Shown here: in pieces, positions 1,499 to 12,263 of the stretch
Layout: each line of letters begins with the position of its first letter
Position numbering within the stretch: position 1 is the first letter of the stretch
From: Savitreella phatthalungensis
Taxonomy: Eukaryota
DNA: 64,000 nt
Assembly: GCA_051599415.1 (NCBI GenBank)
Contig: AP039701.1
Location: 310,001 to 374,000, forward strand
Reading direction: 5' to 3'
Notes under the pieces: model-generated
Seen by the model: only the letters and a program-made list of their open reading frames with translations
The model's database searches: none
What the model was told of the DNA's origin: nothing
Translations under genes and position numbers: made by a program

Positions 1499-4400
1499 CT
1501 GAGAGATAGGGTCACAAATTGGTGACCTGATCCATCGCACTGTGCAACAAGTCCATGTCCGGTCAGAAAACGAAGCAAGATCACAGGTATGCGTCAGATC
1601 AACCTCGCTTGCAAGAGTCCTCGAATATAGAGTGTCAAGCGGTCATGAGAAGTTCATCCTGTGTCGGTCGAGACGCAGCACGGACCGATTACATGCGGCT
1701 GACGCTCATGAGCACATTCATCGGGAGGACCATGCTCGAGCATGACATCCTGAGCGATCGAACTCAACCATGATTCATGTAAGCTCGAGTGATGAAGGAA
1801 TTCTGGACACAGGGTGTTGAATTGTGTTGGAAGCAACCTCGTTGACCTTGGTTGGCGTCGAAGTGGGTCGACGGGAGGTGGCGGAGACGATCGGTGGTCA
1901 CAGTTGATTTACATTGAAGATCGGTGGATTACGTGATTGTGATTACCTCGTGCAGGGATCATCGTGTTGATCGATTTGAGTTGATGATACTGTAGACATG
2001 GGAATGTCAGAGCTGCTAGTTCAATCCTTGGCATGCATGAATCTATCTATCCGGAACACAGCATGCATCATGATGCATCGTTGTCGCCACGCACAACAAT
2101 GTTTCGTCTACCGTTTCATCTTGAGAGCTTGCATAGAGTCAAGCCGAGGCTTTCACCTGGGACTTCAACATGGCTTCAATAGAGTAGCACTCATCTGTAA
2201 AAGATGGAAACACGATAGGATCACTGATTCGTAGTTACTTGTCTAAACTCGCGCTCGCTTGTTGAAGCAGATAATGAGTGTATATATGAGAGATAGGTCG
2301 TTCAGCAGGGAAAGGAATGGTTCGAGATTTCTGCTGATGTGGTATATTAATCCTTGCATTCGCGCCGCGGCTTCTATCCGATCGTGGCTGGATTTGGTCC
2401 GCACAGCCCTGAGATTGCGGCTCAACCATTACCTCGCTCTCAAGATGTCTTCTGAATCACGCCTTGGTCAATTCGGCAATTTAAAAGGTAGATTGCAATG
2501 GTACACGGTGATCAGACCGAAGCGGTCAAACAGAATATGACAGAACATTTGCACTTCTGAGGCTCAAAACATATTCTACGCCTGTCGTGGGAGTCCTGGA
2601 TCTGATCTACATAATGCTTCCTTTCCTTTTCTCATGAGTGGAAGCAATAATACGAGGATCCGATACAAATTTGTGAGATGGGGGAAGCTGAAGCTGCTGC
2701 CTAGTGAGGGAAATTTGAATCTGCCCCACCTCTGATGACAGCTGAGACCCGGCCGGAGTATCGTTCTAGGCTTCATTTGATACGGCTTCCAGCCAATGAT
2801 GATCGATCGCATGGCTCAGTCCTCTATATGACCGGTGAAAGCTTGTAATGATAATAATAGCTCTCGCATTTCTTCACCCGTCCCTCTTGCCTATTTCTAA
2901 TTCCCGATTCCTCTTTCCTTCTTCTTCTCTAGCCTCTTGAGATTTATTTCTTGACATCCTCGTGGTTGGAAGCCAAACCGATCGATTCATGCGCTATATC
3001 ATTTTCCACTCTCGAGCCTGAAGTCTGTTCCAGGGAGCTATTCTCACATACTGCAAGCAGAGAGACACGCGTGCGTTAGATTCGCAAAAGGTTTCCCGAT
3101 TCCATCTCCATGCGATCTATGCCTTTGCCGCTCATCGCAAAGGGGTTCCCCTCTCGAGGGTATCGCCGCTTTCGCTAGCTGCCTCGTGGCCTGTTGTATT
3201 GATCTCACGCCGACGGCCTGGAACCATCTGATCCTGTCATGCATGTGATGTACAAGCTCGTCGATGCGATCGGATTGTCTTGCTTCGCGACCTTTAAGCC
3301 GATTCCTTTCCTCTTTGTCGTGGTTGGAAGTCGGGATGGCACACTCGATGAGGTAATGTGTGAAGGCGACTAAGGCCTCTTGTCTTTCTTTCGACGCTGT
3401 CCAGCTCCTACCGACAGAATGGAAGCCGATGACCGCTTCTTCCGATAAAGCGACTGCGGTCGGATCATGTGAAGGGCGGCATTCCTGGATTAGATTAAAT
3501 GGTCATCAGAATTTTAATTTGTTTGCGGTCGGTCGGCACCATACCCGGGGTTTGTCACTTCTTCCGGTAGATCCTTGCCTGTTCATTCTCGTGCACCTAA
3601 TCACCTCGTCAAGCCTTCCCGAATCTTGCCCGTGTGCTCACAACTTGAATTCCAATTAGCATTCGGTTCAGCGTGACGCCATTCATCGTGGCTTTCGTCT
3701 TCCACTGGTAGCAGATTTGGATCGTATGATGAAACAGATGGGCTATTAACTCCGATTGGCTACTCTGCAGTCCATCACACGTTCTCAATTGTCTTCCTTT
3801 TTTACATGGACGAGCTGGAACTGAATTACACTGCGAGAGAGATTCACTGAGTTCTTCTTGTCAATGGAACACCGCCGTAACTCAACTGAATTATTCAGAC
3901 CTAGCACAAGTTACAAGCCCCAATTAATACTTCAGCAAGAATTCTCCAATATCGTCGATCTTCATGCTAGAATGACCTCTGTGGCTTGCGCGAATGCTTG
4001 AGCAAACTCCTGAGGGAACTCTGACCTTGGACAAAATTCAAAATGAATCAGAACTACGAAAAGCGCACAACCTTAAGGATCTGATGATACCCGGAATAGA
4101 ATCAGGGTCGAATCAAATTCCACTTCATACGTTGTGCCTCCCTCTGCAGAACAAAAGGTGGGATTTCCAACGGAGTATCACTTTCGAGCCAAAACAGAAC
4201 CACTAGCTGTGTTTGTCGGATATTGACCTATTGTTCATCCGCCCCGCCGTAATTAATAACTCCTCGCCTGCATGGCTCTTCCGAGTAATTGAGGCACACG
4301 ATAGATCCCAGATCTCCTCTCTTTTCTTTGTCCCTCCCTCTCTGAAGCTAAAGTCAGTGCTACCGCTAATCCTGCTAATCATGTTGATCCTGCTCCGGGT

Positions 4401-5363
4401 AGTTCTACCCACCTCTCATTTCACTGCTTCAGGATTCATCTACCATCTGCCGTCCAATTCCCATCCGAGCACCAGTCACTCGGTTCCACTCTACACAGAT
4501 TGAAGAATCATAGAATAGCCTAGGACGGCTTTTGTATGATAGGCATTTATACTCCCTGATCTGATTTGCCTTCTGCCTCTTCTTAAGATCTACTCCTGCT
4601 TGGGAAAGTCAGCATCTCTTTCTAGCTGGGTAGAGGCAGGATCGGTCGATACCCACGCATTTCTGCCATGCTCATATACGTATAGGCAGTAAGATTGAAT
4701 GAATCAGTAGCTTGGGTCAGTTGCTCAGTCATTCGCTCACTCACTCTCACTGTCTGAGTATCATTCCGGTCGATCGAGCAGTGATTGTCTACAGCTAAGT
4801 AGGTGAGGCGAGGTGGGTCCATGGGTCAGCACATGCTCAACGCCAGCTCGCCAATCTAGCGACTTGACGATCGAGTGGCATCACTTGGTCAACTTCAAGA
4901 CGTGTCTAGTAGGTCACGACCAGTCTGCTTTCGCTAGTCAGAGCGCCAAGTTCCTGTGGTACTCATCACTCGATCAGCCAAGAGCAGTCGACGTTTTCCC
5001 ACAGAGGGATCAAGAACGACAGCACGTCACCATACGCAACAAGAATTCTCCGAGTGTATCAACCACACTTATCGCTCATTCCTTTGACCAGCAATCTCAT
5101 CAACTTGAAACACAGCGTTTCAAACACGGACAGCATCATCGTCGTGTCCCAGTATACGCTGACTTGCTAGCTTGCCGACTCTAGCGTCTCGTCTCTTTCG
5201 TGTCAAGACTATTAAATCCTTGAGCTTGCTCAAGCTATCCCACGGAACCGAATCAACCGCGAAAGGACGTCTACCTCACCTTCCAGACACGTGTATCTCA
5301 TCCCATATCCCGCAGCAGCATCGACAAGCATGATACGGTAATATATTGCTGGAATTCGTCAGC

Positions 5364-7346
5364 ATGACATCTTACAGCTTCATTGCTGCTGATCGGACAC
5401 GATGTCCTCCTTCGCAGCGTAGTAGCAATACCGATCACAGGCAGGACCACGAACGCATCTTCAAGCAGGAGCAAACGACAAGTGACGGCACGCAAACAAT
5501 CCGTGATCACGACGATGTGAATGCCAGAAGGTCGATCTCGTCATCAACATCCCCATCGGTCGCATTCGATCTCATCATCAGACAACAGCCCGATCGAGCA
5601 CGTGTCTGTTCGTCGCGCGGCAGGGACAGGCGCAATGTCGACCCGCCGCCCATCATTCAACTCAGGATCAGTCAGCTCGGTCGACGGCGGAGCGTGCATG
5701 CATCCTCCGCCAAATCAGAATACCTTGGAGAAGATCCCGAGACGTCGAATTATCTACAAAATCCCTATCTTTTCATGTGCTGTGTTCTGGTCAATGCTCG
5801 AGACGAGCGACCATGCACAGTACCAGCCTCAGACTGTCTCTCAGGCACCATTGTGTCCTCATTGTTCCGCCTGAAGGATCCTGATTCACCTGGCGGCGCT
5901 GGTAATGGTGGCTTTTTCATTTTTGCTGACATCTCAATGCGCCTTGAAGGCGTCTTCCGCCTCAAGTTCAGCTTGTTCGAGGCAGGTGCGATCGCAGGCG
6001 GTCCAGAAGCCTCTGCAGGTTCCCCTTCGCTCATTGCAGGTGGCGAAGGAGGTAGAGAGGTTTCGCATATCGCCAGTGTCGTCTCGCAGCCATTCCAGGT
6101 CTATTCTGCAAAGACGTTCCCTGGCATGTCCCATTCGACTTTGCTGTCGCGGTCGTTCTCCGATCAAGGTGTCCGTATCAGGATCCGCAAGGAAGCCGGT
6201 GCGAAAGGTGCTGGCGGTAACGGCGGTTCCAGTCTTGGCCGAACGAGAAGTCGCGACGATTCACGATCAGACTCAGACGATGATGAGGATGGCAGACCTG
6301 TGCAAAAGGTCGCACGATCTTACATGCCGCCGATCGCACATCATGCACGCCCGCAACCGCTTGCATTGACCGACAGCGCGTGGCATCCGCACTCTTCGTT
6401 GGCGTCTCAGGAGATGCGGTCTCCAATGTCTGGAACATTTGCAAGTCCGTCGCACGGCCCGTTATCGGCCTCGTCGTCCTCAACATCCGGAGGACACCAT
6501 CATCAGTATCACTCCTACCACTCCCGGCCGACCGCACCAGGTATGCCTTCCCCGCTGAGGTCTTCCCACTCCGATGGCCCAGTGTCATCCTCGTACGCAG
6601 GAGACTTGTCGGGTTACTCACTCGGCGGAGGCAGTAGCAGCTTTGCCCGAAGAGAGAGTGTGGATTCCGGCAGGACTTCGCTTCCGGGCATAAGCTCCAT
6701 GAACGCTCCGTGGACACCGTCCACCCCCAACTATCCTTACGCCTCGCCTCACAACGCGCAATTAAGCAGCAGCCTTAATCAACCGCCGTCTACAGGTCTC
6801 GCTTCGGCTCCACGTCATCCTCTGCCCGGTCATGTATCTCGAGAATCGTCCACCGGCACCAACTCCGGCTCATCGTCCGGTCCAGCTGGTGGTCCTAATT
6901 CAACTTCGAGCGCATCGCGCGATCGAGACTTGTACCACCCAATGCCTCCACCTCCTGGTGCTGGGTCAAGTTTTCCATCCCGCCCGCCTCCACCCCACCA
7001 CGCATTCCCCCCACCACCACCTGCACCCCATCAGCAGGCATCTTACCGCCAGCCTCCGCAGCGTGAAGCGGAAACTTACTCAAATCGATACCCTCAAGAT
7101 CGATCATCTTCAGGACTTCCACCGATCATGCCAAACCACCCGGATGGTCCAGGCAGAGTATCCTACCCTTCCTTGGTAGATCGATCACCTACACAATCTC
7201 AAAGCCCCGCAATCTCGTACTACCCACAACAGCAGCAACAGCAACAGCAGCAACAGCGGCGTAGTGGTCAGGACGGCGAGCGGGATTCAAGTGGTGGTAA
7301 TGGTGATGGTAGACCTCGACTACCAGGTGTAGCTTCCTTATTGTGA
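5364..7346 (+). CDS. Velvet-domain transcriptional regulator (VosA/VelC-like)
   Basis: Velvet motifs LIIRQQPDRAR..DRRNVDPPPIIQL, YLQNPYLFM, GFFIFADISMRLEGVFRLKFSLFE and SQPFQVYSAKTFPGMSHSTLLSRSFSDQGVRIRIRKE, followed by a long S/P/Q-rich tail. First ATG is at 5364. Confidence 0.93.
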   Translation: MTSYSFIAADRTRCPPSQRSSNTDHRQDHERIFKQEQTTSDGTQTIRDHDDVNARRSISSSTSPSVAFDLIIRQQPDRARVCSSRGRDRRNVDPPPIIQLRISQLGRRRSVHASSAKSEYLGEDPETSNYLQNPYLFMCCVLVNARDERPCTVPASDCLSGTIVSSLFRLKDPDSPGGAGNGGFFIFADISMRLEGVFRLKFSLFEAGAIAGGPEASAGSPSLIAGGEGGREVSHIASVVSQPFQVYSAKTFPGMSHSTLLSRSFSDQGVRIRIRKEAGAKGAGGNGGSSLGRTRSRDDSRSDSDDDEDGRPVQKVARSYMPPIAHHARPQPLALTDSAWHPHSSLASQEMRSPMSGTFASPSHGPLSASSSSTSGGHHHQYHSYHSRPTAPGMPSPLRSSHSDGPVSSSYAGDLSGYSLGGGSSSFARRESVDSGRTSLPGISSMNAPWTPSTPNYPYASPHNAQLSSSLNQPPSTGLASAPRHPLPGHVSRESSTGTNSGSSSGPAGGPNSTSSASRDRDLYHPMPPPPGAGSSFPSRPPPPHHAFPPPPPAPHQQASYRQPPQREAETYSNRYPQDRSSSGLPPIMPNHPDGPGRVSYPSLVDRSPTQSQSPAISYYPQQQQQQQQQQRRSGQDGERDSSGGNGDGRPRLPGVASLL

Positions 7347-7445: not shown

Positions 7446-9643
7446 TTACTTTGGAGTGAGATCGCTAGAGGAGTCAGTGGTGGCGAGGTTGGACGATTGA
7501 GCTTGCCTGACTGCTAGGAGTCGACGTTTTTCAAGCCACCTGTGTTCCGGGACTACGAGCCAAGAGATGAATCCAAAGATTGTGATTGCACCGAGGATGA
7601 TACCGGCGTAGTTGAGCGTCTGCGCGGTGACAGGGAAGACGTAAGGGGAAACGAGGACAGCGACAGCGAACCAGTTGAAGGGAATCGACAGGAAGATGAG
7701 AGGACGTGATAGGAAACCGAGTCTCCAGGCGCCGTCAGTGAACTCGCCAGGGGTGAGGAAGGCTCTGCCAAGGGCAACGACACCGTACGCGGCAAAGGTC
7801 GGCACACCCGCAGCCGAGACGAGAGAGGTGAAGGCGACGGCGGACGGGAGGATGGTGAGGAGGAGGAGGGAGGAGACTAGCCAGATGACGGTGATGGCGT
7901 TGCGCGGGTTGCCGTGGTGGTCGACGCGAGCGATCCAGTCTGAGAATGGGAGGACGCCGTCTCTGGCGACTGCGAAGACGAGGCGCGATGCTGCGACCGA
8001 GGCGACTGAGCAGTTCAGGACAAGGCCGACGATGCAGATGATGTTCATCAGGATGTGACCACCTTGGCCGAGCGCGAGCGCGTACACGTTCACGAACGGT
8101 TGTGGCGACACAAACGACAGGAACGTGTCGATGTCGGGCGCACAGAACAGGAACAGGATCACGATCGGGATACCCAGCACTGCAGACCAGAAGGCGGACC
8201 ACCAGAGACCACGTGCGGCGTTGCGCGACGCGTGTTTCGTCTCTTCTGCCACGTGACCTGACGCGTCGTACCCAACCAGAATACCGGCCGTCGACAGGAA
8301 CGACAGACACCAGTCCCAGCCGGTGGAGGCGCCCGTGCCGTTGTACTGCGTGAGGAATGCGTCGTGGGCGGATCTGAAGCCGTACGTCTTCGAGACCGCG
8401 ATCGGGAACCAGATGATGTTGAGGATGAAGTCAAGGAGAACGACAGCAGAGGCGACTCGGAACACGTACTTGTACGTCTTTGGCGGGAGGTACTGGATTC
8501 CCATGGCGACGGCCAGCAGGGCTTCTGCACAGATCCACTGGACAGCACGGAACTTGACGTCCGTTGTGTCGGTGGTAAAGGACAGGTCGAAGACGCTGAT
8601 CTCCGCAAGCATGTAGTTCGCAGCTGACTGAGAAACACTTGCAGTGAAGGTCGTCCATGCCGTCGTCGTCCACCACGCGACGATGAATCCAGTCAGACGA
8701 CCGTACCGCGGGCCAGCGGCTTCGGCAGCCCAGAAGTACAGGGATCCTGCTGCAGGCAGGGCAGAACAAATCTCAGCGAGCATGCCGGCGGTGATGAAGG
8801 TGAAGACACAGGTGACGAGGTAGGAAGTCCAGTAGGCGAGTGGACCGCCAGCGCCGATGCCGAGGAAGTAGGTAACACGGATGCCGCCGACAAAGTACAT
8901 GGCCGCAAAGGCAGCGCTGAAGTTGTCAATCAGCTGGAAGCTGCGGTGCAGGACGGGCTTGTAACCAAGACGTTGCTAGAAGGGAAACAGGTCAGCGCTC
9001 ATGGATTCTTTGAGAAGTGCAGTCGTACATCATCTGCACGACCACAAGTCATCGGTCCACTCTTCCGCCCAACCCATGAAAGCCTCGACTTGTCAAAAGA
9101 GAGAGGGGCAGACGCAGGCGGTAGGAGGAAGGGATGAAAGATGACTCAGACACAGGCTCGCTTTTTCTTCCGCAGGTGTGACCCTGTTCAAGTTCACGGG
9201 TATAATCTCAGCCTTTCACGGCGGATCGAGTGTCTCAAGAGCGGTCTTGCGCCGCAAGAACACCATCGGAGAGACACACTATCCGCCGTTTCCGACACCC
9301 CGAAAACAAGCCTTGTGTGTACATGCAGGATGTACGTGATGGACGATGAGAGTGGAGGTAACTTTTTTTTTGGAGAGAGGAAGAGAAGATGCAAGCCTTA
9401 CCACGGTAGTCCTCACCTTCGATCTCTTCATCCTCCCGTGGAGATGATGAAAGAGGAGGGATTGGACTACCGGAACACGTGAGTGTGTGTGTCTGATGAT
9501 TTTGAGGTCCGTGAGCAAAGGGGAACACATACAAGTTGCTGTTCATCAGAATTGAATGAGGTGCGTGGTGTCGAGAGTGGGTCAATGACCTCCTGATCGT
9601 GCGTATGCGCGCCAGTCTGCTTGGTGGAGCGCATCGTAGCCAT
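7446..9643 (-). CDS. APC/ACT-family permease, putative Thi9-like thiamine transporter; exons 9643-9533 and 8975-7446 (about 546 aa)
   Basis: Multi-TM APC permease (LAEICSALPAAGSLYFW, GYDASGHVAEET, SRLVFAVARDG). Splicing GTATGT (9532) to TTCTAG (8976), with branch GCTGAC, joins ...SDEQQL|QRLGYKPVLHRSF in frame. Thiamine specificity is inferred from the intronic TPP aptamer. Confidence 0.9.
9150..9320 (-). promoter_or_regulatory. TPP (THI-box) riboswitch aptamer in the permease intron
   Basis: Minus strand reads AGGCTTGTTTTC-GGGGTGTC...GGCTGAGATTATACCCGTGAACTTGAACAGGGTCACACCTGCGGAAGAAAAAGCGAGCCT. It contains the UGAGA motif, P2 GGGTG/TACCC, long P3 (ACGGCGGAT/ATCCGCCGT, GTGTCTC/GAGACAC), P5 CAGG/CCTG and an extended P1. 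Confidence 0.92.
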
Positions 9644-10237
9644 CACTATCAAGACACTCGTTCAGGAATAACGACTCTCGTTGCAGGTGTTTTAGGAGGA
9701 GTTTGTTGAATGTAGCGCTGGTGCGCTGGGAGAGTCGACGAGTGAGTAGTGATTCACTGACTGGATGGTTGAGGATAGGTACTGAGTATGTGGATGTAGG
9801 AGGTGGATGTGGATGTGGGTGTCTGTGTTGGTAGGAGAGTGGAGGATATGGTTGGGAAGAATGTTTAGTGACGGTTCATAGTCCCCAAGGGTGATTGGTG
9901 ATTCACATATGTGCATGGGAGAGTGATATATTTGATAAGACTGACAGAAAATTTTTCTTCTTCTCTTCTTTCTGCAAGTGTTCAGCTGCAGACCGTCAAC
10001 TGATTTAATCTGACAGGATTTGACACTTATTTCCGATCTAGGCTGAAGATTAGAGTTGCGGTGAAGACTATAAAACTCAACATTGGTACACGTGCAAATA
10101 GTCAAGGCATTGCATGAACCATGCAGTAGTCCAGGTGAATGCTTGCACCATTGACTCCAGCTTTCTCTTCCTGCTTTCCAGTCGTTATGATCTTCTATAC
10201 ATTGTGCTGGAGTACGCTAAGTTCCTACTTTTGGGAG

Positions 10238-10282
10238 CTCGATGATCAGAACAGGATCTCGATGATCAGAACAGGATCTCGA
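10238..10282. repeat. 20-bp tandem duplication (GATGATCAGAACAGGATCTC x2) spanning the MCM10 stop codon
   Basis: Exact copies at 10241-10260 and 10261-10280. Confidence 0.9.
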
Positions 10283-12263
10283 GATCATCATCCTCATCAT
10301 CCTCATCTGCGTCTACTTTGCCCTTGGCTTGCAATTCGAGCTCCTTCTTACGACGCTTTGCTTCCTCTAGACCGTCTCTTGTGAATTTGAGACTAGCCTC
10401 TGTGCGTTTGATGGTGAGATCGACATCTGCTGCAGATCGGCCTTGAGCCAGATTGCCTGTGTCTGCGTCTTCTGGGCCATTGCCACCTGCAGGAGCGGCC
10501 GCAGCGGTGGCAGAAACACTCCCGAATAGGCGTTTCGTGGGGTCAAACCCGATCTTCCGTAGAGTTTGCGCAGAGAACATCCTGCCATCTGCTTGATCGT
10601 CGGCAGGCTTGCCATTCGGATCGGTCGTCTCGAAGTATTCGTGCCCTGCTGATTGCGCTGTGGTGCTCATGAGTTTTGCTAGCATTTCGCGCTCGCGCTG
10701 GCGTTGATCGGCTTCGCGCTGGAGGCGATGCACACCGCGGACTGTCGACTCGAACTCGCTCTGGCTGACCTCATTCGATTGCAGGCCGCCACCGCCACTG
10801 TAGCCTGTCACCCGGTCGCCGCCTTCGGAATGGCCGTGTTGTGTGACACCGTACTTGCGCCTCCGCTCCATCTCAGGGTTGACCTTCTGGGCGCGGCGAT
10901 ACTCGTTGCCTGGCTGCCAGGTCGACCCGCCTGATGACTTTTTGCCTGATCGAGGATCAAACAGGCGCGTCCCAACCGCAAATTCGATCCGCTTGTTGAC
11001 CTGCTTCGACAGGGCGACGTCGATGTGGTAGTCACACACGTCCTGCTTCGATGCATCGATCCAGGCACCACACCGTTGACCATCCGCCTTCATGCTCCTG
11101 CAGATTCCGAAATCAGCGGCTCGCGCGATTTCCAGAACGGCCTCCCCGTCTGCGGCTTTCAGACTCAGCCGCTGACCAGAGCCAGGGCGGGGCTTCTGCA
11201 CTTGCGGATTGAGCAGCAGTACGACCGCACCGACGGAGAGCGTCCAGTGTTGGTCGAATGCGGACTCATATAGGAAGACTGCGAGCTCCATCTGGAGATC
11301 GGTCAGTTGGAGTACGCTGTACTTGGCCTTACCGTCTTGAGTCTGCCGAGCATCTGTCTTTGCAGCAACGATGCCCCAGACCACGACGTCCTCGCATTCC
11401 CCATCTGATCGCATCTTCGCAATCTCGTAGTCCGGCGGACTGGCGAGAGCGAACAGCTGACGAATTGACATGGTCTTGTCTGCTGCCGCACAGCACCTGA
11501 CGGCGTCATTGTCGGCCACACGTCGGTCGTAGATTCGGAGCCCGGTGACGCTACAGCGTTCCTTGATTGTTGAGTCGTCTGCAGCGGCGGAAAAGGCAGG
11601 CACTGGGTTGAACTTGCTCAGCTTCCTCGACTGTGCCTTTAGACGTGTTACTGCACGCTTTTCAGCAGCAGCCTGCTCGTCACGTGCAAATTTGAGCTTT
11701 TCGTTGAAGCTGTGCTTTGGCTTCGATTGAGGCCCAGACTGGGGCACAGACTTCTGCTTCTCTGGAGTGCGTCGTAAGGAGACGTCCTTGGCTGTTTTCC
11801 CCTTGTCAATGCCAAGCAGGACGCGGGCTGGAGATACCGGTGGCTTCCGTTTTTGTGGAGAAGGAGAGCTGGCGACCTGGAGTGTGCTTCCAGTGGTAGC
11901 ACGTTTTGGACTAGCGAATGGGAGGACAGATCTGATAGACGGACTTCGACCTGGTGAAGCGCCTGTGATATGGGCAATTGGTCGAGGTGGGGGTGTCACA
12001 GGTCGAGTTGGAAGCTCCGCAGATTGCTTGTCCGATGGATTTGAGTCAAAGGTGGAGACTGTCGATGCATGAGCAGAGGACTCGGGCACGTGGATCAAGT
12101 GTGTTGCTGTGGCATCTTGGGAGTGGGCACAGTTCAGAGGTGTTTCTGCCGATGGATCTCTATCAGCGAGTTTGCGCTTCTTCTTCAGCTTTGCTCTGAT
12201 GAGCTGTTCCTTGAGGGCGATGACTTCTTCGTCATCACTCGAGTGGATGATGAGGTCGTCCAT
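10266..12263 (-). CDS. MCM10: DNA replication factor Mcm10/Cdc23
   Basis: OB-fold (VVWGIVAAK..KYSVLQLTDL..WTLSVGAVVLLLNP) plus the CCCH zinc finger FGICRSMKADGQRCGAWIDASKQDVCDYH. Confidence 0.9.
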   Translation of the reverse strand: MDDLIIHSSDDEEVIALKEQLIRAKLKKKRKLADRDPSAETPLNCAHSQDATATHLIHVPESSAHASTVSTFDSNPSDKQSAELPTRPVTPPPRPIAHITGASPGRSPSIRSVLPFASPKRATTGSTLQVASSPSPQKRKPPVSPARVLLGIDKGKTAKDVSLRRTPEKQKSVPQSGPQSKPKHSFNEKLKFARDEQAAAEKRAVTRLKAQSRKLSKFNPVPAFSAAADDSTIKERCSVTGLRIYDRRVADNDAVRCCAAADKTMSIRQLFALASPPDYEIAKMRSDGECEDVVVWGIVAAKTDARQTQDGKAKYSVLQLTDLQMELAVFLYESAFDQHWTLSVGAVVLLLNPQVQKPRPGSGQRLSLKAADGEAVLEIARAADFGICRSMKADGQRCGAWIDASKQDVCDYHIDVALSKQVNKRIEFAVGTRLFDPRSGKKSSGGSTWQPGNEYRRAQKVNPEMERRRKYGVTQHGHSEGGDRVTGYSGGGGLQSNEVSQSEFESTVRGVHRLQREADQRQREREMLAKLMSTTAQSAGHEYFETTDPNGKPADDQADGRMFSAQTLRKIGFDPTKRLFGSVSATAAAAPAGGNGPEDADTGNLAQGRSAADVDLTIKRTEASLKFTRDGLEEAKRRKKELELQAKGKVDADEDDEDDDLEILF

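Follow-up and report, generated by a model that had tools for sequence, protein, structure and literature searches.

Does an amino acid permease-like gene of the yeast Savitreella phatthalungensis carry an RNA switch that reads the cellular level of thiamine pyrophosphate (TPP), and if it does, how might such an element inside an intron decide whether a functional transporter is made? The gene lies in a 64,000-nt stretch of contig AP039701.1 (GenBank assembly GCA_051599415.1, positions 310,001 to 374,000), here called the window, in which an initial annotation, made from the DNA letters without database searches, had placed a TPP riboswitch in the coding-region intron of an APC permease. Our analysis makes it quite probable that the first intron of this gene, which most likely encodes a Thi9-type APC permease of a Taphrinales yeast, carries a functional TPP riboswitch of the fungal THI9 group that represses the gene via splicing. 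All coordinates without a locus number refer to the window, and statements from the literature refer to the accessible parts of the cited papers.

The aptamer, as delimited by the Rfam model RF00059, the predicted fold, a model built from relatives (R1, described below), and alignment, consists of the following elements.

9148..9318, minus strand (sense strand of the gene): TPP aptamer.
9318-9303 paired with 9165-9150, minus strand: P1, a long helix.
9302-9297, minus strand: 5' strand of P2.
9296-9213, minus strand: P3, with the tip hairpin UCUUGC-GGC-GCAAGA at 9259-9245.
9211 to 9198, minus strand: CTGAGATTATACCC, which holds CUGAGA (9211-9206) and ACCC (9201-9198).
9192-9167, minus strand: P4-P5, with the loop L5 GUCACA at 9182-9177.
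9192-9188 and 9173-9171, minus strand: CUUGA and GCG, the presumed pyrophosphate-sensor nucleotides.

We take CUGAGA...ACC to be the pyrimidine sensor and C-U-G-A...GCG to be the pyrophosphate sensor, which presumably contact the ligand. Every feature that had been listed for the aptamer, namely the CTGAGATTATACCC core, P4/P5, the P3 tip hairpin, and the extended P1, was located both in the sequence and in the fold, on the minus strand of the window and hence on the sense strand of the gene, and the presence of a complete, genuine TPP aptamer on that strand is confirmed. The minimum-energy fold of 9320-9140 formed the P1/P2-P3/P4-P5 three-way junction with −72.8 kcal/mol (z −3.2; equalled by 1 of 200 shuffles), and its helices comprised a 15-bp P1, P2, the long P3 with its tip hairpin, the CUGAGA junction, and P4-P5 with GUCACA. 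When the region 8900-9700 (801 bases) was searched with RF00059 in E-value mode, a match at 9312-9148 on the minus strand covered the complete model (positions 1-105) with 43.0 bits and an E-value of 5.4e-7. The covariance-model check proposed with the initial annotation thus returned a full-model match, although one that lies below the gathering score of 54.3 bits, and for this reason the default Rfam scan of the whole window gave 0 matches at the gathering score.

The same element is widespread among relatives of the gene. Scanning metagenomic contigs with an alignment of 16 relatives (A1) yielded 79 loci with relatives at 28-71% identity. Searching these loci by motif revealed a TPP-like core directly before the permease match in 17 of them and directly behind it in 4. 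RF00059 in E-value mode confirmed 13 of the 17 upstream-core loci at E ≤ 0.01, with 34.3-59.9 bits, and only one of the 17 (L003) exceeded the gathering score; the 43 bits of the window are therefore typical of the group. For model R1, 11 metagenomic aptamers were aligned (A3), P1-P5 were annotated by hand, and the window and the 79 loci were searched. The 45 matches obtained, all at E ≤ 3e-6 and all on the permease strand, corresponded to 44 of the 79 loci plus the window. The 11 training loci match R1 by construction, whereas the window, which was not in the training set, and the other 33 loci are independent detections. The sole match in the window, at 9315-9150 on the minus strand, had 44.9 bits and an E-value of 1.9e-10 in 383,183 bases.

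The covariation signal across these relatives was large. In an alignment of 40 distinct rows (A4), 93.3% of the cells paired, compared with 71.9% in shuffles and 32-48% with slid partners, figures that are generous, given that the loci share ancestry and that the alignment was fitted to the model. Both-sided changes occurred at 21 of the 26 pairs, and the observed covariation was reached by none of 500 shuffles. In the row of the window, 24 of 26 model pairs were standard, and of the 29 columns with at least 90% conservation among the 39 other distinct members, 26 had the consensus letter. Its three departures were a compensated C-G to G-C flip in P2, which accounts for two columns, and a change from U to A in J4/5; the A in J4/5 is common to the window, L003, and L020.

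The position of the aptamer is also shared. Among the 54 loci with at least 400 nt of upstream DNA and a match starting by residue 61, the aptamer was upstream of exon 2 in 36, and in 35 of these it lay 20-236 nt before the permease match. In the remaining locus, L004, it lay 1064 nt before the match; this TPP-like aptamer (L004:67-245) stands at the contig end, has a 36-nt insertion in place of P5/L5, and is only a candidate for association with that permease gene.

The window aptamer fits a group that has already been described from other fungi, a precedent that the initial annotation missed: the pairing of this type of gene with this switch is already published. THI9 is among the five gene groups with fungal TPP riboswitches given by Donovan et al. 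(2018, PMC5997356), who, citing Moldovan et al. (2018), place riboswitches in Thi9 orthologs of other Taphrinomycotina, of Pezizomycotina, and of Basidiomycetes. Mukherjee et al. (2018, PMC5882874) report riboswitch-regulated "amino acid transporter" genes, which are said in the accessible part of that paper to be absent from Ascomycota. A 2024 survey in ACS Omega (PMC11683625) names a group TPPsw-AA, describes it as lacking the RUAAUR motif in L5, and notes that RF00059 performs poorly on fungal members with a long P3, and both statements match what was observed in the window. The loop GUCACA, which had been called atypical, is indeed present and has no RUAAUR motif, but L5 is variable across the THI9/TPPsw-AA group, the relatives having UUCAUG, UUAAUG, AUCAUG, UUCACA, CUUAUA, CUCAGA, and others, and this explains its apparent oddity. 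According to PMC5997356 and PMC8786325, as far as their accessible text goes, no member of the THI9 group has been tested experimentally, nor does S. phatthalungensis appear in the accessible text of the papers cited for the group.

What does the host gene encode? Its model is simple.

9533..9643, minus strand: exon 1 of the permease gene, with the ATG at 9643-9641 and 37 codons including the ATG, ending S-D-E-Q-Q-L (from the listing of open reading frames, ORFs).
8976..9532, minus strand: riboswitch intron, 557 nt, phase 0, after codon 37 (GTATGT...CTGAC...TAG, read from the sequence).
7446..8975, minus strand: exon 2, 509 codons plus the stop, with the whole APC permease domain (from the ORF listing and Pfam).

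Exon 1 and exon 2 joined encode 546 amino acids identical to the hypothetical protein PYCC9005_004146 of S. phatthalungensis (P0001), and a permease of Protomyces lactucae-debilis (P0006, 72% identical) aligned without gaps across the exon 1/exon 2 junction. The coding-region intron is exactly 557 nt long (9532-8976, phase 0), as first annotated. Exon 2 matched the Pfam families AA_permease_2 (1.3e-44) and AA_permease (2.8e-23), which bears out the assignment to the APC permeases; the description of the protein as generic-looking did not hold, since 16 of the 120 listed relatives, which are about 59-63% identical, have the source name "Thiamine transporter thi9". The host permease is most likely a Thi9-type APC permease, its orthology to Thi9 of Schizosaccharomyces pombe being based on the source names of the relatives and on the literature. 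Among 10 cluster representatives that were looked up, none came from Schizosaccharomyces. Like S. pombe Thi9 (Vogl et al. 2008, cited in PMC5997356 and PMC12329505), it is an APC-superfamily permease of a Taphrinomycotina yeast, Savitreella belonging to the order Taphrinales of the Taphrinomycotina, and its relatives are named by the sources after the S. pombe protein. In contrast, the wording of PMC5997356 ("other" Taphrinomycotina) implies, without stating it, that S. pombe thi9 has no riboswitch.

The permease might instead carry a cargo other than thiamine, that is, a precursor (hydroxymethylpyrimidine, HMP, or the thiazole moiety) or another compound needed according to TPP status. Riboswitch-linked fungal transporters of several families are uncharacterised (PMC5997356, PMC5882874), and the Thi9 assignment was made from source names and the literature, which leaves some room for such a cargo. 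We nevertheless consider it improbable, given that the source names of the relatives indicate Thi9 and that thiamine transport by S. pombe Thi9 has been demonstrated (Vogl et al. 2008, cited in PMC5997356). S. phatthalungensis showed no growth in vitamin-free medium (PMC8877625, which, in its accessible part, does not name the required vitamin), and vitamin uptake therefore matters to this yeast.

How, then, could the aptamer act on the transcript? The intron contains the following signals.

9527..9532, minus strand: distal 5' splice site S1 (GTATGT), for the productive mRNA (sequence reading).
9467..9469, minus strand: UAG, the first in-frame stop of the intron, 5' of the proximal donor-like sites.
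9411..9416, minus strand: donor-like proximal site S2a, AAG/GUGAGG (sequence reading).
9396..9401, minus strand: donor-like proximal site S2b, GUG/GUAAGG (sequence reading).
8991..8995, minus strand: CUGAC, with the branch A at 8992, 16 nt 5' of the 3' splice site AG at 8977-8976.

The CUGAC at 8991..8995 is what we take to be the branch site. Transcripts that keep the intron stretch with the UAG at 9469-9467 end after 58 codons. With S1 at 9532, the UAG at 9469, the donor-like sites at 9416 and 9401, and the AG at 8977-8976, the window has the layout called "Type III" by Mukherjee et al. (PMC5882874), in which an internal intron has the donors S1 and S2 with an in-frame stop between them; in the accessible part of that paper this type is predicted for fungi and not observed. 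It is the coding-region version of the NMT1/THI4 device of Neurospora crassa.

The layout is conserved in the metagenomic relatives. It was compared in 33 of the 40 upstream-aptamer loci, seven (L004, L010, L015, L023, L025, L027, and L036) having been left out because they are cut by a contig end or their aptamer is too distant. The first coding exon ended with D-(D/S/E/Q)-D-E-x-x-L followed by GT in 32 of the 33 loci, 45-204 nt before the aptamer. A donor-like site, often GTAAGT, GTATGT, or GTGAGT, was present between the S1-equivalent donor and the aptamer in 31 of 32 loci, and an in-frame stop in the donor-to-aptamer stretch likewise in 31 of 32. The window has the D-E-x-x-L/GT exon end, the donor-like sites, and the in-frame stop, more spread out than in the relatives. 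In most Pezizomycotina-like loci, the riboswitch intron precedes a micro-exon of 21 nt (x-x-L-G-Y-K-Q/P), after which comes a second short intron, whereas in the window the micro-exon is fused to exon 2 and there is no second intron. The micro-exon was located as follows.

L005:1454-1474 and L021:1246-1266: micro-exon, with equivalents in L015, L020, L024, L025, L029, L034, L039, and L040.

The window shares with the THI9/TPPsw-AA group an intronic TPP aptamer with a long P3 in a probably Thi9-like APC ("amino acid") permease gene, its placement on the sense strand in an intron after a short first coding exon, an L5 without RUAAUR, a pair of donors separated by an in-frame stop, and a host within the Taphrinomycotina, which are among the carriers. 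It differs in the fused micro-exon and in the length of the intron and of the S1-aptamer spacing, both of which exceed those of the 33 relatives.

The best reading of this arrangement is TPP feedback repression of an importer of thiamine (or of a precursor), as suggested by the thi9-named relatives, by PMC5997356, and by the same arrangement in 40 metagenomic loci with covariation; the interpretation given in the initial annotation, a thiamine-related permease under TPP control, is supported at the level of sequence comparison. When TPP is scarce, S1 (9532) would be spliced to the acceptor at 8976, and the 546-aa transporter would be made. When it is plentiful, the ligand, presumably bound by the aptamer, would lock P1 and P4/P5, and then the proximal donor S2a (9416) or S2b (9401) would be used, or the intron would be retained. 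Either product would keep the UAG at 9469-9467 and encode a 58-residue peptide, nonsense-mediated decay would be expected, and thiamine uptake would in this way be feedback-repressed. In the NMT1/THI4 introns, the proximal donor is covered by strands of P4/P5 as long as TPP is absent (PMC3597705). As in N. crassa NMT1/THI4 (Cheah et al. 2007, via PMC3597705), the aptamer of the window is preceded by a proximal alternative donor and followed by the acceptor, and the proposal is likewise a genetic OFF switch in which strands of the 3' half of the aptamer would mask the proximal donor without TPP. The window differs in that its intron interrupts the coding sequence, that the predicted aberrant product has a premature stop, and that the best candidate partner of the donor is P4'/P1' rather than P4/P5, a pairing that is statistically unsupported.

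A simpler device would be plain intron retention or slowed splicing, in which the TPP-bound structure hinders S1 or the branch site and the proximal donors are unused. It would suit the donor-like GUGAGG and GUAAGG, which are weak matches buried in a local hairpin of the predicted fold; the retained intron alone already supplies the UAG at 9469; and unspliced products with stop codons were reported for Candida DUR31 (Donovan et al., PMC5997356). Yet a donor-like site, in most cases a strong one (GTAAGT, GTATGT, or GTGAGT), has been kept in the stretch from S1 to the aptamer in 31 of 32 relatives, which argues that the second donor is part of the device, and we regard retention alone as unlikely.

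Donor masking calls for a segment that can pair with the aptamer, and the relatives provide good evidence for such elements, the window poor evidence. The upstream 24-nt stretch with the strongest pairing to the 3' half of the aptamer (P5', P4', P1') lay between S1 and the aptamer in 16 of 21 loci; the segments of these 16 loci stood 2-76 nt before a donor-like site, and 6.7 loci would be expected from length alone. Compared with 150 dinucleotide shuffles, the pairing was clear in L005 (0 shuffles as good) and moderate in L063 (2), L029 (3), L011 (4), L062 (4), L068 (5), and L024 (6). Two candidate elements were found in the window.

9378..9401, minus strand: candidate anti-aptamer, which starts at S2b and forms 16 bp with 9171-9154 (3' strands of P4 and P1) at −22.0 kcal/mol.
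9483..9496, minus strand: UCAGACACACACAC tract, candidate long-range "alpha" element, whose first 9 nt are fully complementary to the 3' end of P1 (9154-9146).

The segment 9378..9401 is the best-pairing upstream 24-nt segment in the window and contains AAGGCUUG (9399-9392), an 8-nt copy of the P1 5' strand at 9314-9307. The UCAGACACACACAC tract, a low-complexity sequence, ranked fourth among the upstream segments with −17.4 kcal/mol.

Several observations weigh against a THI9-type splicing switch in the window. At 557 nt, the intron is longer than the 200-400 nt given for "Type III" (PMC5882874) and longer than any intron examined in the relatives, and S1 is 217 nt from the aptamer, compared with 45-204 nt in the relatives. 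The −22.0 kcal/mol of the 24-nt duplex in the window was equalled by 32 of 100 shuffles, and the long-duplex test for the window was null, 66 of 150 shuffles being as good; of the 11 relatives tested, 4 likewise showed weak pairing (L021, 11; L020, 14; L034, 21; and L039, 51 of 150 shuffles). Folding of 9435-9135 was predicted to yield the aptamer without the ligand and to place both proximal donors in a separate local hairpin (9435-9412 with 9362-9338), so that they would be hidden regardless of TPP. The DNA of the relatives was compared without close (Taphrinales) members, the metagenomic loci come without taxonomy, and these loci are not phylogenetically independent, several being near-identical. 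The RF00059 score is about 11 bits below the gathering score (43.0 vs 54.3), a deficit that results from the 78-nt insertion in P3 and the deletion of P3a. Finally, an upstream aptamer is missing from 18 of the 54 eligible relatives, L018 and L019 among them, whose best-segment identity (64-65%) is among the highest, and the switch is therefore dispensable in some lineages. These 18 are L001, L007-L009, L017-L019, L042, L045, L048-L052, and L057, plus L006, L014, and L016, in which an aptamer lies downstream of the gene instead; part of the family has lost the upstream aptamer or never acquired it.

The low score and the absence of the upstream aptamer from these 18 relatives, together with the unusual L5 and the change from U to A in J4/5, could be taken to mean that the aptamer of the window is an inherited relic in which neither TPP binding nor regulation is left, and a loss of function in thi9-type switches has been speculated on in PMC8786325. 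We consider this very unlikely. The CUGAGA, ACC, and GCG motifs are all conserved, 24 of the 26 pairs are intact, the single change in P2 is compensated on both sides, the A in J4/5 also occurs in L003 and L020, and a variable L5 is a trait of the group; the intact core and the covariation argue against the loss suggested in PMC8786325.

If the THI9-type splicing switch is accepted, the way in which the donor is masked in the THI9 group, and in this member in particular, may follow a variant of the expression platform that has not been described. In this variant, which we put forward as a tentative possibility, a decoy sited at the proximal donor would vie with the true 5' strands of the aptamer for pairing to the 3' sides of P5, P4, and P1. 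The decoy of Savitreella would be the literal copy of the P1 5' strand (AAGGCUUG), starting inside the donor GUAAGG, and TPP would select one of two states, "P1 closed, donor free" or "P1 strand on donor, donor hidden". If this is true, the module (intron position, aptamer, decoy, and stop) would be ancient and common to relatives at 34-71% protein identity, and in paralogs the aptamer would have been shifted to an intron beyond the stop codon.

Another way to couple the aptamer to splicing is the long-distance looping-out proposed for N. crassa NCU01977/DUR31. Without TPP, the P1 3' strand at 9154-9146 would pair with the UCAGACACA tract at 9496-9488, 36 nt downstream of S1, so that S2a, S2b, and the aptamer would be looped out and S1 would be brought near the acceptor; TPP would lock P1 and break the loop, and the internal donors would then compete. 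The 9-bp complement is perfect; in agreement with the published model (PMC3597705, PMC5882874), the tract is flanked by S1 on one side and the proximal donors on the other; the anti-aptamer of the relatives is likewise between S1 and S2; and the intron, at 557 nt, comes closer to the length range of that type (650-900 nt) than to that of "Type III" (200-400 nt; PMC5882874). Further similarities to NCU01977/DUR31 (Li and Breaker 2013, PMC3597705; Donovan et al. 2018) are that the riboswitch occupies an internal intron, that its host is a transporter gene, and that there are several internal donors; the truncated products at high thiamine and an alpha-alpha' interaction that may join the P1 3' strand to a site close to S1 also resemble what is proposed here. 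However, that transporter belongs to the urea/polyamine-type symporter family, and the mechanism is confined to urea-type transporters according to the accessible text of PMC5882874. The tract is (AC)n-like and of low complexity, which makes complementarity to UGUGU cheap; it ranks only fourth among the upstream segments, at −17.4 kcal/mol; and the 9-nt match of the alpha element is not above shuffles, no upstream pairing in the window being supported by the shuffle tests. We therefore regard looping-out as rather unlikely.

A separate observation concerns some loci of low identity in which what looks like a partial copy of the 5' half of the aptamer lies between the donors, at 2106-2129 in L047 and about 60-90 nt before the aptamer in L043, L044, L062, and L071. 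These copies read GCGGGUAUCC... or GGGGGCUGAGAG... and pair with the 3' half, and may represent a decoy that arose by duplication.

In four loci, the aptamer lies behind the permease gene, in each case on the plus strand.

L006:4331-4444, plus strand: downstream aptamer.
L013:1902-2009, plus strand: downstream aptamer.
L014:2489-2596, plus strand: downstream aptamer.
L016:4317-4425, plus strand: downstream aptamer.

The permeases of these loci are more distant paralogs (42-44% identity). Their aptamers had 59.7-61.1 bits, above the Rfam threshold, and lay on the sense strand, with about 130-160 nt separating them from the preceding permease match; the permease ORF of L006 has its stop at 4204. 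A consensus donor GTAAGT stands just before the aptamer in L006 and L016, with a branch site and AG after it. By analogy, the arrangement looks like a riboswitch intron in the 3' untranslated region, reminiscent of plant THIC. Alternatively, the downstream aptamers could belong to the leader of an unrecognised transcript; tblastn of the ORFs of L016 against L006, L013, and L014 found no conserved downstream gene behind the four aptamers.

The genes that flank the permease gene in the window are unrelated to thiamine.

5334-7346, plus strand: gene for a velvet-factor protein (Pfam Velvet, 8.3e-44).
10266-12263, minus strand: MCM10 homolog (zf-primase, 6.1e-16; MCM10_OB, 2.1e-10).
10240-10279: exact tandem duplication of a 20-nt unit, cgatgatcagaacaggatct x2, at the 3' end of the MCM10 frame, spanning the stop region.

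The finding leaves the general knowledge of riboswitches unchanged. With it, a riboswitch group still awaiting bench tests gains a member from the Taphrinales, and it is a case in which the default Rfam threshold misses such a member. The comparative data, comprising 44 aptamer loci, the intron position, the second donor, the stop, and the anti-aptamer segment, yield a concrete and testable model of splicing control, and this comparative model of the platform and the paralogs with downstream aptamers are the parts most worth following. For the organism itself, a protein listed as "hypothetical" in a recently described, vitamin-requiring leaf yeast gains a likely function, the uptake of thiamine, which would be repressed by TPP.

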